DNA of 40,015 bases from a virus. Its lineage: Duplodnaviria; Caudoviricetes. A program made the position numbers and the translations under genes. The notes beneath the pieces are model-generated. The model saw only the letters and a list, made by a program, of their open reading frames with translations. It was not told the DNA's origin and made no database searches. Below are positions 26,545 to 39,114 of the stretch, piece by piece (position 1 is the first letter of the stretch; each line of letters starts with the position of its first letter). Where the stretch lies: positions 1 through 40,015 of the IMG/VR virus record IMGVR_UViG_3300039066_000012; one strand, given 5' to 3'.

Positions 26545-28458
26545 TTATACGCCGTCGTTGTTGTATGCGAACGAGACTGGGTTGCGAAGTGCAACGTCAA
26601 CAGTCTGGAGCGCAACTACGCGGACCGTACCGGTGTTCGAGGACGTATAAGGATCTACAGTGAGATCCAATCCGCCCCACATTCCGATCATGCAGTCACT
26701 GAAATTCCCAAAATAAACGTTACCAGCAGTCGCCTGTTGTGTGCGAATTACTGGGTAGCCGTTTGCTTGGTTGCCTTCTGCAACGAACATGCCCGAACCT
26801 GTGTCCTTGCTCTTCGTCTTCAGACCACCGAGAGTTGCGGCATCTGTGATGTAGGCAAGGTTACCGAACAGTGCGTTGTCTTCTGCAACAGCAGTTTCCA
26901 AAGCAACCATTTCAGCAAAGGTTGGAACAGCAGCAGCAAAGCTGGTTGGCTTGTTGACACCGACGGTGTTCAAGATACCAGTTGGCTGGCCGCTCAGGCC
27001 TGTGCCTTCAAGTGCGCCCTTGTCGATTGCCAATGCGAGAGCCTGTGTCAGGTCATCACGCACCAGTGCTTCGATGGAAGGCGTCGATTGAAGGATCAAC
27101 TGACGGGTCATGTCGGTGAATGCACCAACAGTCTTTGGCGTCAGCGATACAGTACCGAAGGTTGGTTCCGACTCAGAAGACGCGCCGCCTTCTGTGCTGA
27201 TCCATGCGCCAGCCGAAGCAGCGGTCTTCTTAGGGATCGCAACGTTACCAACAAGACCGGGCAACATACGAGCGCCTGCACGCATGACCGAAGCCGAGTT
27301 GCGCAGAACGTCGATAAACTCGTTAGCAAGCAAGTTGGTTGCAACGATTTCGTTGTCGTCCGAGGTATTGAGGTCACGCTGCTTCCAGACGCCGAGAACG
27401 TCGTTAGGGATCATGAGACCCTGTGCAGTGCGACCATAACGCTGCGCAGCGGCATCCGATGCTTCAAATTCGAAAGCAGCGGCTTCACGCAAACGGCGAT
27501 CACCGGGGTTGGCAAGAGCGGCAATTGCACGGACAACCGAGAACTGACGAACTTCTTTACGGGTCAAGCCGATGTTTTCGCTGTCCAATGGTGTACCCGA
27601 GCCGATTTCTTCAAGCAGTTCGCCACGGAACTGTTCGATTGATTTGCCAGACTTGATGGCAGCTTCGGCCAATGAGCGCTTGTTGTGACGAACGCCCAGT
27701 TCGAGGATTGCGGATACGTTGCGAGCAGCGGCTTCAGCAGCTTCTGCGCGGACGTTGTCCAGATTGACTTCAGACATAGTAACTTCCTTCTTCAAAACAG
27801 GTTGAACTTTAAGTGTTGGTTCGAGAGCGGCTGCGCTGCGACCTACACCGACTGACGGGTCGGCGGGGATAGAAACGACAGATACCTCAAGGGGCGACCA
27901 TGAACGAACTAGATATTCATCTTTGTTCGAAGTGGAGCGCTCCATTTTGTTGACGCGGTAGCCGACGGAGACATTCCCCCGAATACCATCGACAACATCC
28001 TGAAAAATCTCTTGCGCTAACGCAGAGCGCCCGAAGCGGACATTCGCCCGTAGCACCCTATCAGCATCGAGACCAACAGATTCAATAACACCAATCTGAC
28101 GCTCCATGTCGTGATCGAGGAGCAGCGGTGCGCGGCCAGACTTGAGAAACGCCATATCGATGGACCTCTCGTCGTGGACCAAAACTTCTTTGCCAAATGA
28201 GCGTTCGACTGGTAGTTCAGACGAAACCGCAATGGAAACAGTGCGCTTCTTTTCATCGACGCCACGCACAGAAATGTCAACAACAGCCGAGCGCCGCTCG
28301 ACATTGGCTTTCTTACGCTCACCATCGTCCTCTGTGACTTCGGCTTCAACGACCTCTTCAGTCGATTCAACTTCAACCGCCTCAGATTCAGCGGTCTCTT
28401 CGACTACAGCCTCTTCGGCTGCAATCTCTTCGACCGGTTCTTGGACTTCTTTTTCCAT
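26545..28458 (-). CDS. Prohead protease-major capsid protein fusion (HK97 fold)
   Basis: APLLLDHD, NVSVGY, EVSVVSIPAD protease motifs; capsid motifs LTPKTVGA, GQPTGILN, YFGNFS, VDPY. Confidence 0.93.
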   Translation of the reverse strand: MEKEVQEPVEEIAAEEAVVEETAESEAVEVESTEEVVEAEVTEDDGERKKANVERRSAVVDISVRGVDEKKRTVSIAVSSELPVERSFGKEVLVHDERSIDMAFLKSGRAPLLLDHDMERQIGVIESVGLDADRVLRANVRFGRSALAQEIFQDVVDGIRGNVSVGYRVNKMERSTSNKDEYLVRSWSPLEVSVVSIPADPSVGVGRSAAALEPTLKVQPVLKKEVTMSEVNLDNVRAEAAEAAARNVSAILELGVRHNKRSLAEAAIKSGKSIEQFRGELLEEIGSGTPLDSENIGLTRKEVRQFSVVRAIAALANPGDRRLREAAAFEFEASDAAAQRYGRTAQGLMIPNDVLGVWKQRDLNTSDDNEIVATNLLANEFIDVLRNSASVMRAGARMLPGLVGNVAIPKKTAASAGAWISTEGGASSESEPTFGTVSLTPKTVGAFTDMTRQLILQSTPSIEALVRDDLTQALALAIDKGALEGTGLSGQPTGILNTVGVNKPTSFAAAVPTFAEMVALETAVAEDNALFGNLAYITDAATLGGLKTKSKDTGSGMFVAEGNQANGYPVIRTQQATAGNVYFGNFSDCMIGMWGGLDLTVDPYTSSNTGTVRVVALQTVDVALRNPVSFAYNNDGV

Positions 28459-34044: not shown

Positions 34045-34496
34045 ACGATAATCGTCCGACCCTTCTTGGGGCGACCCACCCGGCGCTTTGGCTTAGGCGC
34101 TTCACCCTCAACATCAGGCTCACTTTCGACAGCGCCGCCACCTGTCCGAACGGGGTCAATCTCCGGCTGGTAGTTCGCCAATTCGGTCAGAGCCTCGCGG
34201 ATAGCCTGCTCAATAACGTTTTTCACCTTCGCCGTATCGCTCTCGTTCGCCACGACAGGTGCAACCTTGGTCGGCAGCGACAGGAACTTGGCCTTGCACG
34301 CATGAAGCACACTTTCCCATGCCTTGACGACATCTTCCGTCATGCACAGCGTACCGCGTATCTTCGCCAGTTCGAGTTCGGCGATCTCAGCTTCGGCGCT
34401 TAGCTTGCGGGTGCGGGCTTCTTCGTATGTCTGAATAGACACCTCCGGCCTGAGCATACTTTCGCTACCAGCTTTTTTTCTGCCTTCATGTGTCAA
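34041..34496 (-). CDS. terS: Terminase small subunit (Nu1/DUF1441-like C-terminal part)
   Basis: YEEARTRK..AEAEIAELEL...RG.L, LSLP, ALTELA; ATGA overlap with terL. Confidence 0.85.
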   Translation of the reverse strand: MTHEGRKKAGSESMLRPEVSIQTYEEARTRKLSAEAEIAELELAKIRGTLCMTEDVVKAWESVLHACKAKFLSLPTKVAPVVANESDTAKVKNVIEQAIREALTELANYQPEIDPVRTGGGAVESEPDVEGEAPKPKRRVGRPKKGRTIIV

Positions 34497-35361
34497 AGTT
34501 CAAGCCCATCTTGTTATAATGTATTCTCATTCTATCTGCCGCTTCAGGTCTCAGCATTTTAAGCCATTTGGACGGGTGATGTGCATGTTTAGCTGAATTA
34601 CAGGTCCAGCACAACACCGTTACATTTGTGGCACTGTGTGCGCCGCCAAGTTTGAGCGGGACAATGTGGTCAAGCACTTTATCGTCGCGCTCCATCCAGC
34701 CATCGCAGCACGGGCATACTTTGACCGAAAACAGCCTGTTGATTAGTTCGCTTGTAATGGTCCCGTCTGTTCTTTCGTTAATCAGGAATTGCCTTCTTAC
34801 GTTACCATTCCATTCACCAGAATGAACCTTTGCGGATCGACATGGCTTACATGTCGCCTGTCGCCCGTCTTTTAACGACGTATGTGGTGAGTAATCGCTA
34901 AAAGGTTTGCGGATGTTGCAAGATTTGCAAATCTTTGTTTGCGTTGCAATATCACTTTCAATATCTTCTTTTGAACGCGCTCTATGTGAGCAACAATATT
35001 TCAAAATCTTGCTACTTCCCTCTCGCGGCCATTCAGAGCGTGGCTTAGATTTCCCACACCTTCCGCATTCGAGCAACTGGTTTTGACGCACCGCCATTCG
35101 TTCAGCCTTTCTTTTTGCTGCTTTTTCCGCCAGTGACGGACGTTTAAGTGCAACATTCCGTTTATTCATTTCACCAAGGCATTTTCTGCAATTGCTGCCC
35201 GGCATTTCTTTGACAACTGGAAAAGCAGAGGCATCCTTGATTTGTTCGCAATTAGTGCACAGCCACAAACCATTCTTAAATCGCCTAGATATAGCGGATT
35301 TCCTAGCCTTTTCGCCATTAAACTGCCGACCATCGGGCATTCCGTCTTTTCTCAAAATCAT
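34486..35361 (-). CDS. HNH endonuclease with multiple CxxC zinc ribbons
   Basis: CPCC...LDHIVPLKLGGAHSATNVTVLCWTCNSAK; five upstream CxxC motifs; ATG at 35361 below TTGACA at 35397. Confidence 0.85.
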   Translation of the reverse strand: MILRKDGMPDGRQFNGEKARKSAISRRFKNGLWLCTNCEQIKDASAFPVVKEMPGSNCRKCLGEMNKRNVALKRPSLAEKAAKRKAERMAVRQNQLLECGRCGKSKPRSEWPREGSSKILKYCCSHRARSKEDIESDIATQTKICKSCNIRKPFSDYSPHTSLKDGRQATCKPCRSAKVHSGEWNGNVRRQFLINERTDGTITSELINRLFSVKVCPCCDGWMERDDKVLDHIVPLKLGGAHSATNVTVLCWTCNSAKHAHHPSKWLKMLRPEAADRMRIHYNKMGLNFDT

Positions 35362-35425
35362 AATGCTGTATATTCCATTTTTAGGGTTCGCTGTCAACAG
35401 GAAATGCCTGCCAATCTTTTTTCAT

Positions 35426-35469
35426 CGCGGTCGCTATTACCCCCGGGGCATATCCGGCTGGAAGGACCC
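35426..35469 (-). other. Putative cos site (cosQ plus cosN-like)
   Basis: Minus strand GGGTCCT-N23-TAATAGCGACCGCG; GGGTCCT equals lambda cosQ and GCGACC falls at the same offset as in lambda. Confidence 0.65.
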
Positions 35470-35717
35470 TACTTTCACAGCGGCCCATAGACGCCCATAG
35501 GGGGCCGCTAGGGCATAGGGACGCCCTACCCTGCCACCTAGCTAGCGGGCGATATAGGGCACGCCTGAAAAGGCTTGTATGGGGTTGTATGGGGAAGGGT
35601 GGCGCTATCGCCTAGGGCTGGCAGGGCAGGGGAAGGGCTGGCCAAGGGCCAAGGGCCGCGCCCTCATATGTGCGCGGCGATTGACAGCTTGCGCATGAAC
35701 CTATGCGCAAGGCAAAG

Positions 35718-35743
35718 AAAAGGCCCGCACAATGGCGGGCCTA
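35718..35743 (-). terminator. Terminator, copy 1
   Basis: AGGCCCGC-6nt-GCGGGCCT followed by TTTCTTT on the minus strand. Confidence 0.8.
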
Positions 35744-35771
35744 GGTTGTTTCGATTGTATGTTGTGATTGA

Positions 35772-35927
35772 TTAAAGGATTGATAGCAATCGCTCAACGC
35801 TTCCCGATAGCTTACTGTGCCCTGCCTCTAGTCGCTGATATTGACGCCATGACAAGCCCAATAGAAGGGCCGCGCCCTCTTGCGTTAAGCGTCGCTCTTT
35901 GCGCCATGCCTTAAGATCAATTGCCAT
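35772..35927 (-). CDS. XRE/Cro-type HTH protein (51 aa), Aca-like position
   Basis: MAIDLKAWRKERRLTQEGAALLLGLSWRQYQRLEAGHSKLSGSVERLLSIL; TAATG coupling; not in the ORF track. Confidence 0.85.
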   Translation of the reverse strand: MAIDLKAWRKERRLTQEGAALLLGLSWRQYQRLEAGHSKLSGSVERLLSIL

Positions 35928-36241
35928 TATGCTTTCCCTTTTCCGTTTATCGCCGTTGCACTATCAATAATTGACCAAGCCTTTTCCGGCCCAATTTTAT
36001 TCGATAAATCCTGCAATGCCAACATTGCGTCAATGCGCTTATTGCGCTTGCGATATGAATTATGGCTTAAAATCATATAGGGCCGTAAATCGCATATACG
36101 CCTGCCCGACTCATAATGCGTCAATGTTTCGCCATGAATAAAGGCTTTAAGCTTGCGATCACCTAGCAGTAAAATCATAACTTGCCCGGCAACAGATCGC
36201 TTTGAACCGTCAACGCAAATAATATCAATTGTTTTTGCCAT
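35927..36241 (-). CDS. Hypothetical protein (104 aa)
   Basis: TAATG-coupled at both ends; contains LTHYESGRRI. Confidence 0.8.
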   Translation of the reverse strand: MAKTIDIICVDGSKRSVAGQVMILLLGDRKLKAFIHGETLTHYESGRRICDLRPYMILSHNSYRKRNKRIDAMLALQDLSNKIGPEKAWSIIDSATAINGKGKA

Positions 36242-36438
36242 TATGCTTTCCCTTCCATTTCATATCCATAATCTTTCCAGCGCGGGCCGCTTAAGGGCCA
36301 AACAATATTGCGCTTAATCCAATGATAGCGCCATTGCGCTTGCCCATATGTTAGGCCGCGCCATACTAGCGTTTCGCCATTATCAAGATTGATATATGCG
36401 CGAAACCTATCGCTTGTTATTTGCTTTGCCATTGCCAT
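36241..36438 (-). CDS. Hypothetical Trp-rich protein (65 aa)
   Basis: TAATG-coupled at both ends. Confidence 0.75.
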   Translation of the reverse strand: MAMAKQITSDRFRAYINLDNGETLVWRGLTYGQAQWRYHWIKRNIVWPLSGPRWKDYGYEMEGKA

Positions 36439-37304
36439 TATCCCACAACAAAACCGGATTGATCGCGGCGAGCCTTGCCCTTAGCGTATAGCGCCACAAT
36501 AACGCCATTAGGCTCAATATGCCGGATATCGCTATTATCGCCGTCAACGATAGGCAAGCCCAAAAACGTATCGCCATTGGCTAACATTGCCTCAACGATT
36601 GCACGATTGCGAAAAACGACGGCGATACGCTCGCCATTATCGACTGCCTTAGCGATATAGGGCGCATAATCTGCGACGCCTGAATAACTAAACGTCAAGT
36701 CATAATTGGCAGGGATATTGCGACGGTTCGCAAGCTTTGTATAATCATAAAATTGGATATCTGGCAGGGCTTGCATAATGTTGCGCCCGGCATAGCCAGC
36801 AACAGGGATATTTTCCCAGCGGATATCGCTTGTCCCATTAAGCCTAACAATAAGCTTGTATCCCTTGCGCTTTGCCTTGGCCCGTTCACGAATAAGCTCA
36901 TTATGCAATTGATGCATAAATTGTTCGCGATATTGATTAAAATATAGCGTTTTACGCAAGCGCGATAACATAACGTTAGACATAGCGCCGCGGCCCGCGG
37001 TGAATAAGCAAGCCTTTTCACAACCCGCTATCTTTGCCATTGGGCACAATTGCACGCCCGATTGCTTGGCTGGCATAAGGTACAATATCGCCGTTTTTAT
37101 GCCATATTTTTCACCCTTGATAGTTTTGGCGTTAGTGTCGATCCCTAGCAATTTTTCGGGCAATCGTGAAAAGAGCGAACGATTATGATCATTGCCTATT
37201 ATCTGCAATTGGATATCCAGCGAAAGCGCCGATATATCATAAGCAAGGGATTGATCGCCGAAACGGTTATTATATGCAAACGGGTGATTAATGAAATGCA
37301 ACAT
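36438..37304 (-). CDS. GP88-like protein with a three-Cys motif (radical-SAM-like)
   Basis: CPMAKIAGCEKACL; RLNGTSD; QFYDYTK; NYDLTFS; AAGGA RBS before MLHFINHPF. Confidence 0.7.
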   Translation of the reverse strand: MLHFINHPFAYNNRFGDQSLAYDISALSLDIQLQIIGNDHNRSLFSRLPEKLLGIDTNAKTIKGEKYGIKTAILYLMPAKQSGVQLCPMAKIAGCEKACLFTAGRGAMSNVMLSRLRKTLYFNQYREQFMHQLHNELIRERAKAKRKGYKLIVRLNGTSDIRWENIPVAGYAGRNIMQALPDIQFYDYTKLANRRNIPANYDLTFSYSGVADYAPYIAKAVDNGERIAVVFRNRAIVEAMLANGDTFLGLPIVDGDNSDIRHIEPNGVIVALYAKGKARRDQSGFVVG

Positions 37305-37424
37305 GTTAAAATATCCTTTAATGTTAAAATTAATGTTAAAATTGCGGGCCAAAGATAAACGCGTCAAGCGCAAGGGCCGCGATCAAGTAAAGCGCGAATA
37401 GGGCGCAATGGGTTATTGTTTGTT

Positions 37425-37655
37425 TCATGACGCCCAATATCCAAGCTTGCGAGCGTTATCCTTTAACCGGGCAACGTCGCTTGTCTTAACGCGGCGCGTA
37501 GTAAGCTTGCGCCCATTTTCGCCATAATAACCGATTGTACTATGGAAAGTCCAATGAGTAACGCGAACATGTTTGCGCGAGCGGCGCATAATAATAGGGC
37601 GCGGCGCGGGCTTGCGCGATAGTGAGGCAATTGCCTTCTTGATTAGGTTGATCAT
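37425..37655 (-). CDS. Small basic hypothetical protein
   Basis: TAAGGG RBS; first gene after the promoter. Confidence 0.7.
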   Translation of the reverse strand: MINLIKKAIASLSRKPAPRPIIMRRSRKHVRVTHWTFHSTIGYYGENGRKLTTRRVKTSDVARLKDNARKLGYWAS

Positions 37656-37690
37656 TGTTTTGGTCCCTTACTGTTAAAATCAATAAAGCC

Positions 37691-37763
37691 CTCTTAAACA
37701 CGTCATTATGACGCGTCAATAAGAAAATGACGCCCGATGCAAATTAATTTGCACCTTATGACG
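37691..37763 (-). promoter_or_regulatory. Promoter TTGACG-N17-TAAGAG with palindromic operator
   Basis: CGTCAT-T-ATGACG palindrome (37701-37713) in the spacer; more ATGACG at 37727 and 37758; perfect palindrome TGCAAATTAATTTGCA at 37738-37753. Confidence 0.6.
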
Positions 37764-37881
37764 CGGCGTCGTTGTGCCCCTATATATAAAGCCTAAAATC
37801 GCTGCATTGACGCAAGCTTGGCGCTTGGCAGGAAGCCAGCAACATTATTGCTCAATATTGATATATTATTGCGCCATTGAG

Positions 37882-38060
37882 CGATAGGGCCGCATCGGAC
37901 CTAAATCGACCGATAGGGCCGAACCGGACCTAAATCGACCCCCCCATACGATTTATGGAGCAAAATTTAGGGGCATACGATTTATGGGCCAAAATTTAGG
38001 GGCATACGATTTACGAGGCAAAAATACCCCGCCTACGATTTCTGGGCCAAAATTTTCCGC
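37882..38060. repeat. Two convergent arrays of 29-bp tandem repeats
   Basis: Unit A at 37882 and 37911; unit B at 37945, 37974, 38003, 38032. Confidence 0.9.
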
Positions 38061-38078
38061 CATTCATCCACCCATAAA

Positions 38079-38104
38079 AAAAGGCCCGCACAATGGCGGG
38101 CCTA
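38079..38104 (-). terminator. Terminator, copy 2 (identical 26 bp to 35718-35743)
   Basis: AAAAGGCCCGCACAATGGCGGGCCTA; longer T tract on the minus strand. Confidence 0.85.
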
Positions 38105-38124: not shown

Positions 38125-39114
38125 TTACTTACGACCCCGCGCTGGCTTAGGCGAGAGGCACGGTGTCCCGGCTGCGGCAAACGCCATCCAGACATCAACA
38201 TCCTGACACATAAGTTCACGTGCAGCAGCACCCTCACCCATTGATTGCAATTGACGCGTCTGCTTCAAACGGACGCAGTTTTTGTCGGTCCATGATGTCC
38301 CAAGCGAAAAGCCAAAGCCAATCCCCTGACCGCCTGCGCTGGATGAACCCATGCAAGTGTCCGAACCAGCCACCAATTGCGGAGCGTATGCCGTGGAAGC
38401 CGCTGCGCGATACTGATCGCCCTCGACGTTGACGCTAGAGTTATTCGCGTTCGCCGTTGATTGGCTTTGGTTTGAATTTGACGCAGTATTGCTGGTGACG
38501 GGGCCTGTGGTTGCAGACGCCGTGCCACCTTTGGCATCAATCGAATTGACATTGGTGCTGGTAACCGGACCAGTTGTGGCTAACGCCGTGCCACCAGTTG
38601 CGTTATTCGCGTTGCTGTTGGTGCTAGAAACAGGCCCAGTGGACGAATAAGCCGTGCCGCCGGTAGCGTTGTTCTCGTTGGTGCTCGAAACAGGGCCAAC
38701 ATATGCGCTGCCCCCATCACCACCAAACGCCGTGTTCTGGTTACTTGCAGAGACGTTCACAGCGTTGTCCAGTGTGTTGGTCAGTGGACCTACGTTATTT
38801 GTGTTTTCAAGCGCGTTGGCGTTGCGATTTACGTTGCGGTTGGTGTTATCCACGGCATTAAACGCAAGGGCTGCACTGTCGCTGTTGCTCAATGCCGCTG
38901 CACCGCTGCTGCTTGTAGAGGCCACTGGACCAACATTGACCGATGGCGAGGTGACCGCCGGGGTTGTTGGAGTTGTGGGCGTTGTGGGCGTGCTACCGCA
39001 AGTAGTTTGACCGTTGCCGCAAGTCCCGTTGCCGTTGGCCGAAGACACTGCAAGTGCTTCTACAGGGATTGTTGTTGCTGCGAGTAGTGCAGCCGCGATG
39101 ATTGTCTTCTTCAT
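38125..39114 (-). CDS. Exported Thr/Asn/Ser-rich repeat protein with Cys-containing C-terminal domain
   Basis: AAGGAG RBS; Sec signal MKKTIIAAALLAA...ALA; GPV(S/T)STN..NATGGTA repeats; DTC...DKNC...LMCQD. Confidence 0.8.
   Translation of the reverse strand: MKKTIIAAALLAATTIPVEALAVSSANGNGTCGNGQTTCGSTPTTPTTPTTPAVTSPSVNVGPVASTSSSGAAALSNSDSAALAFNAVDNTNRNVNRNANALENTNNVGPLTNTLDNAVNVSASNQNTAFGGDGGSAYVGPVSSTNENNATGGTAYSSTGPVSSTNSNANNATGGTALATTGPVTSTNVNSIDAKGGTASATTGPVTSNTASNSNQSQSTANANNSSVNVEGDQYRAAASTAYAPQLVAGSDTCMGSSSAGGQGIGFGFSLGTSWTDKNCVRLKQTRQLQSMGEGAAARELMCQDVDVWMAFAAAGTPCLSPKPARGRK

Follow-up and report, generated by a model that had tools for sequence, protein, structure and literature searches.

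Why would a lambda-type phage carry, beside one end of its DNA, a compact operon in a segment depleted of a particular set of short words? The question is raised by positions 35718..38104 of IMG/VR virus record IMGVR_UViG_3300039066_000012, whose whole 40,015-nt sequence we call the window (completeness rating 100%). An earlier note had described there a self-contained cassette of genes for 76-, 288-, 65- and 104-aa proteins and a 51-aa helix-turn-helix (HTH) protein, closed by a terminator, and had read it as a counter-defence operon built like those for anti-CRISPR proteins (Acr) and their associated regulators (Aca). All of these parts were located, on the minus strand, together with a 30-aa open reading frame (ORF) that the note's inventory had missed. 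The cassette is an optional and exchangeable set of small genes that sits at a physical end of the DNA, on the cosQ side of the cohesive-end site (cos). We predict, at a probability of roughly 60%, that it is an autoregulated anti-restriction unit blocking systems that act at asymmetric N6-methyladenine (m6A) sites (type IIG, type III, type I and bacteriophage exclusion, BREX). From the DNA end inwards, the segment is built as follows.

35430..38104, no strand: terminal segment purged of words, reaching from the cos end as far as the outer terminator copy and probably the first DNA ejected; change point about 2660 nt from cos
35430..35441, no strand: cosN, a 12-nt cohesive end, its 12 bases common to both end contigs; an equivalent 12-mer bounds contigs of relatives
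35463..35469, minus: cosQ-like heptamer identical to that of lambda, 249 nt from the cassette
35470..35717, no strand: non-coding tail from cosQ to the terminator, purged as well
35718..35743, minus: intrinsic terminator closing the operon, one hairpin, an exact 26-nt direct repeat of 38079-38104
35772..35927, minus: 51-aa XRE-type HTH protein (HTH_3), the predicted autorepressor
35927..36241, minus: 104-aa basic protein without a known family (46 clusters at 90%, counting its own)
36241..36438, minus: 65-aa protein, found only in cassettes with GP88 or DUF7227 (9/16 versus 0/13)
36438..37304, minus: GP88 (PF17338; PHROG 1617), 288 aa, resembling radical S-adenosylmethionine (SAM) enzymes
37336..37428, minus: 30-aa hydrophobic ORF; relatives have similar peptides
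37425..37655, minus: 76-aa basic protein, the first gene (K+R 19, D+E 3), with relatives in three GP88 loci (L031, L033, L035)
38079..38104, minus: outer terminator copy, where the purge stops; siblings that lack the cassette have one copy only

The unit is thus bracketed by its terminator repeat (35718 and 38079), its five main proteins are all net basic, and TAATG joins the last four genes at all three junctions, as had been described. The end itself is physical, because contigs from three of four runs of one study (X1-X4) end there. In X1, possibly the sample from which the window came, one contig stops at 35441 and another begins at 35430, each with extra letters that we take to be sequencing adapter; X2 and X4 contigs stop at 35441 as well. 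Because the 12 nt are present in both end contigs, the cosN ends are likely 5' overhangs, as in lambda. The contigs of 19 relatives start with a cos-like word. Like lambda, the window has a 12-nt cohesive end, the cosQ heptamer upstream of cosN and a gpA-type terminase downstream, so that the cos-like site proposed about 250 bp from the cassette, on the cosQ side, holds.

The missing words are asymmetric and contain adenine, short words of a type that many bacterial restriction enzymes recognise. The purge was measured with seven trimer pairs (GAG, CAG, GAC, CAC, AGA, AGT and ACC), picked from the cassette region itself and then tested elsewhere. Their observed/expected ratio (O/E) lies at 0.25-0.46 in the 2.5 kb nearest cos and at 0.74-1.00 on the terminase side. 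Within the purged segment GAGA is absent (16.5 expected), ACCA occurs twice (27.8 expected), and 78 of 512 pentamer pairs are missing (33 other windows lack 8-26). With the window and the GP88 gene excluded, these seven trimers again rank lowest, in 9 relatives. Codon resampling at genome usage leaves a deficit in all five cassette genes (z -2.2 to -7.9); the corresponding z is -0.1 to -0.4 in terS and a 329-aa gene and -2.0 in an HNH gene. Shuffling each gene's own codons also exposes word loss across codon borders (z to -4.8). Since the signal survives codon resampling, is equal on both strands and extends into the untranslated tail, we conclude that selection acts on the DNA.

Relatives were gathered in two ways. 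A GP88-anchored search (80 best of 253 loci) found close homologues surrounded by the purge, which also appears in a second phage group; S-A-S word use was lower near GP88 in all 65 loci with enough flank, window included, a drop that is weak (0.72-0.93) in many distant loci and to which protein composition may contribute. A terminase-anchored search (80 best of 212 loci) is free of that anchoring bias, although four of its contigs with at least 1.7 kb of cosQ-side flank are also in the GP88-anchored set. Of these 28 flanked contigs, 24 carry a cassette and four do not; the cargo is GP88 in 9, DUF7227 in 4 and something else in 11, and the HTH gene is present in 22 of the 24. With six more genome ends added and L155, where no cos was found, set aside, the O/E next to cos spans 0.31-0.60 in GP88 cassettes (n=8) and 0.47-0.60 in those carrying DUF7227 (n=6); cassettes with any other cargo gave 0.42-0.76 (n=14), and ends lacking a cassette 0.82-0.94 (n=5). 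In the 190 nt before cosQ the purge trimers number 17.2 when a cassette is present (n=17) versus 30.3 when it is absent (n=3, one a truncated contig). One sibling, L090, shares the window's cos and is 99.9% identical to the window across 1431 nt of terminase; it has a single terminator copy and neither cassette nor purge, a layout that recurs in an X4 contig. GP88 matched only 1 of 19 hand-picked relatives and is therefore one option among several.

The composition of this DNA points to restriction-modification and BREX-type defences. Of the type IIG/III m6A motifs in table S4 of Blow 2016 (PMC4752239), the first 12 occur at 0.46 and 0.48 of expectation in the two phage groups (compared with random hexamer sets, p 0.045 and 0.053); in the cos family four of the 12 show no depletion. 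GC-rich palindromic hexamers are avoided genome-wide and not specifically in the cassette, and some AT-rich palindromes that the backbone avoids are common inside it (palindromic hexamers 53 observed to 76 expected inside, 265 to 645 outside). Tolerance of palindromes and purge of asymmetric words may be a trade-off. The purge in T7 and T3 is much weaker than in the window.

Taking the DNA end and the purge as given, a course of infection can be proposed. In lambda the cosQ-side end is ejected first; with the purge confined to this side, it is very likely that the cosQ-side segment of the present phage would enter first too. We hold with equal confidence that host RNA polymerase, after entry of about 2.3 kb, would transcribe the operon toward the DNA end, and that the HTH protein would then shut it off. 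The purge would probably reflect selection by restriction, paying only if the segment encodes a protector of the remaining DNA. The inhibitor may well be GP88, perhaps with the 65-aa protein, at odds slightly short of even, and, more tentatively, GP88 might destroy or sequester SAM, as the T3 SAMase does with another fold. The anti-restriction prediction draws on precedent and on what these defences require. First-in protective DNA with local site avoidance has been shown in murciaviruses, where type I sites are concerned (PMC12455610), and in BF23, where it extends to types I-III (PMC10644984). Sites are asymmetric in type ISP, IIL, III and BREX systems, several of which require SAM, and type I and BREX are blocked when SAM is depleted (10.1101/2023.02.27.530186).

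The 288-aa product, described in the note by its Cys motif, belongs to the GP88 family. Its cysteines are real: C87, C95 and C99 are invariant, as are R154, N156, D160, Y188, S206 and D259, and the three cysteines, placed after the first barrel strand, are kept in 138/138 sequences. The predicted structure (predicted local distance difference test, pLDDT, 91.7) retrieves only radical-SAM enzymes at VIA ranks 1-22, and resembles small members such as the pyruvate formate-lyase activating enzyme (3c8f), QueE (5tgs/4njg) and spore photoproduct lyase (4fhc) in the cysteine triad and in a putative partial barrel. The spacing in the window protein is Cx7Cx3C and not the canonical Cx3Cx2C; the 138 sequences have Cx6Cx3C (55), Cx7Cx3C (47) or Cx5Cx3C (1), with 35/138 unparsed by the pattern. 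Variant spacings occur in real radical-SAM members. We class GP88 as radical-SAM-like only. No SAM-lyase fold is among its listed structural matches. The family is large (4723 clusters at 50% identity). In the T7-like phages HTVC120P and Lo5R7ANS its homologues (565-1311 and 1734-2552) precede RNA polymerase, in the early slot that holds ocr in T7 and the SAMase in T3; in other isolates GP88 lies near record ends. The likeness to T3 gene 0.3 SAM lyase, T7 Ocr and the murciavirus early region (10.1101/2023.02.27.530186, PMC12455610) is that of an early gene predicted to act against SAM-dependent, asymmetric-site defences. It differs in the radical-SAM-like fold, the three cysteines and transcription toward the DNA end; Ocr is strongly acidic (D+E 34, K+R 6), whereas GP88 and the other cassette proteins are basic. 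GP88 also occurs as a domain of 1043-2192-aa proteins and fused to L5 gp82 (P0258, P0260, P0267, P0129), which is its neighbour in HMO-2011. Among the open-access papers listed in literature searches there was none on the function of GP88 or DUF7227, nor on such a purge in cos phages.

An early anti-restriction unit need not deplete SAM. GP88 might instead direct radical chemistry at incoming phage DNA, a nucleotide or a host defence protein, a doubtful alternative that is nonetheless nearly as likely as an action on SAM; the cassettes contain no methylase, glycosylase or nucleotide enzyme that we could find, and the top structural matches, tied within 1 Z unit, indicate no substrate. The odd composition could also have nothing to do with restriction, being the foreign dialect of an acquired module or a codon or mRNA effect. 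The purge does move with the cassette, its edge is the module edge, and the cassette tolerates palindromes avoided elsewhere; but the same words are missing from non-homologous cargo and in a second phage group, on both strands and across codon borders, and they are rarer in the 190 nt before cosQ when a cassette is present, which makes this explanation unlikely.

The anti-CRISPR emphasis of the earlier note is not supported; variable cargo and a general counter-defence role are, as is, with probability, autoregulation. Acr-aca operons (PMC13551039) share with the cassette small variable genes, a terminal HTH and a promoter inverted repeat, which here covaries. Here, however, the main cargo is a 288-aa enzyme, the proteins are basic, and the purged words are asymmetric 3-6-nt words on both strands, not obvious protospacer-adjacent motifs. 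Searches of Pfam, PHROGs, NCBIfam and PADLOC, general sets of which none is dedicated to Acr/Aca, gave no Acr or Aca match for any cassette protein, and the HTH protein had generic HTH_3/XRE matches only in library searches that likewise included no dedicated Aca profile set. Aca-like control also governs non-Acr genes (PMC13551039). That small proteins here inhibit CRISPR-Cas under an Aca is hence improbable, and the likeliest effector is GP88 with its 65-aa companion rather than the three small proteins alone. Nor are the 65-aa and 104-aa proteins orphans, as had been thought: both have relatives, and the fold predicted for the 104-aa protein is also that of uncharacterised proteins from Enc34 and JS26. 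Early position, basic proteins and tight autoregulation would also suit a host-takeover product that attacks or modifies DNA at the purged words and spares its own, as hypothesised for T5 A1 (bioRxiv 10.1101/866236). The words are missing whatever the cargo, the other 37 kb retains them and no nuclease family appeared in scans of the cassette proteins, so we regard this as very improbable.

Three elements of the operon's predicted control were mapped.

37701..37713, minus: 13-bp palindrome, the predicted operator, lying in the -35/-10 spacer and covarying among relatives
37714..37719, minus: conserved -35-like hexamer of the predicted promoter, kept in relatives
37752..37763, minus: imperfect second operator-like site upstream of the promoter, spotted by eye

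A generic sigma-70 scan of the window did not call the cassette promoter. The proposed promoter with palindromic operator is supported instead by relatives, which repeat a TTGACG/C hexamer with a 13-bp palindrome directly after it. The operator script located a promoter in 15 of 39 loci. Across 11 distinct operators, one of them a wrong pick, 49/55 cells are paired against a shuffle mean of 36.6, and 0/5000 shuffles, a control that ignores relatedness, reach 49; positions 3 and 5 vary jointly on both arms. Among ten phages, the HTH recognition helix tracks operator type in the majority but not in every one. The operon is self-contained and probably autoregulated by its HTH protein at the promoter palindrome.

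At the inner edge of the purged segment lies one further element.

37876..38055, no strand: array of repeats spaced 29 bp apart, with cores at 37947, 37976, 38005 and 38034 and nowhere else in the window

The array is present in 10/10 GP88 cos loci, with the purge ending just past it; the change point tracks the outermost repeat (rho 0.82, n=19), at a median gap of 155 nt. It is a candidate injection-pause or boundary signal, and its position fits a module edge equally well. The first-step-transfer region of T5 and BF23 (bioRxiv 10.1101/866236, PMC10644984) likewise combines a terminal segment poor in restriction words, sites being tolerated elsewhere, with repeat-rich non-coding DNA at its inner edge, comparable to the T5 injection stop signal. 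Unlike it, the purged segment here measures 1.7-3.5 kb and belongs to a 40-kb lambda-type phage that ends in a 12-nt cos and has no long terminal repeat, and the module is optional, with no A1/A2 match. It is a long shot that a family of small lambda-type cos phages injects in two steps, pausing at the array while a plug-in, restriction-proof cassette makes GP88 or DUF7227 as the first radical-SAM-type anti-restriction enzyme, removing SAM or chemically disabling SAM-dependent defences; the purge would then be a sequence-only flag for anti-restriction genes in any phage genome.

The cassettes of relatives vary in several ways. DUF7227, a three-cysteine family, occupies the GP88 slot in L095:5325-6020, L138, L147, L163, L173 and L174. 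Some cassettes lacking GP88 are led by acidic 117-139-aa proteins (L098:5162-5521, L104:4519-4869, L119:5205-5621, L126:960-1376), one with a weak DUF7222 match, which are possible DNA mimics. L116:4207-6164 encodes about seven small, mostly acidic proteins (one DUF7249-like) with the same promoter region and HTH, and these are the best Acr-like candidates among the loci seen. A 79-aa helical family, PHROG 13953, often follows GP88 (L011:8028-8264 and 24 other GP88 loci). In the second phage group (L002-L006, L008, L010, L014, L018, L036) a different HTH and a small terminase (PHROG 1482) come after a purged cassette of GP88 and the 65-aa gene, which likewise lies upstream of the small terminase.

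The rest of the window holds a gpA terminase, a lambda portal, a protease-capsid fusion, tail genes, a primase-helicase and a polymerase-like gene; no integrase was found among the 41 ORFs scanned. A single 637-aa ORF at 26545-28458 (minus) fuses the prohead protease and major capsid protein. The HNH/endonuclease VII-like gene (303 aa, 34486-35397, minus), between small terminase and cos, is missing from close siblings (X3/X4 joint 34431-35418; L090) and so optional. Beyond the cassette, at 38125-39114 (minus), lies the gene for the 329-aa low-complexity protein (PHROG 20531), with a signal-peptide-like start and 66-nt internal repeats, adjoining that for a 121-aa secreted-looking protein (PHROG 2315); the cassette-less siblings L090 and L171 share this region and have extra paralogues. 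The terminase's nearest isolates are Roseobacter phages, at no more than 60% identity, and an alphaproteobacterial host is a guess with which the strong window-wide avoidance of palindromic hexamers and the scarcity of GANTC sites (48) are compatible.

In summary, protective DNA that enters first and avoids sites locally is an established principle. Our data suggest that an early module can bring local avoidance of asymmetric sites with it, a signal lost to surveys that score type I/III avoidance over whole genomes (PMC12455610), and near-identical siblings with and without the cassette provide a natural control. We predict that the cassette acts against restriction and not against CRISPR, perhaps by means of a radical-SAM-like enzyme that is widespread and unstudied. 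The purge offers a simple route to mining unknown anti-defence genes, of which these relatives alone give dozens of candidates. Moreover, an anti-restriction role, if true, would annotate GP88 in mycobacteriophages, pelagiphages and freshwater phages together.
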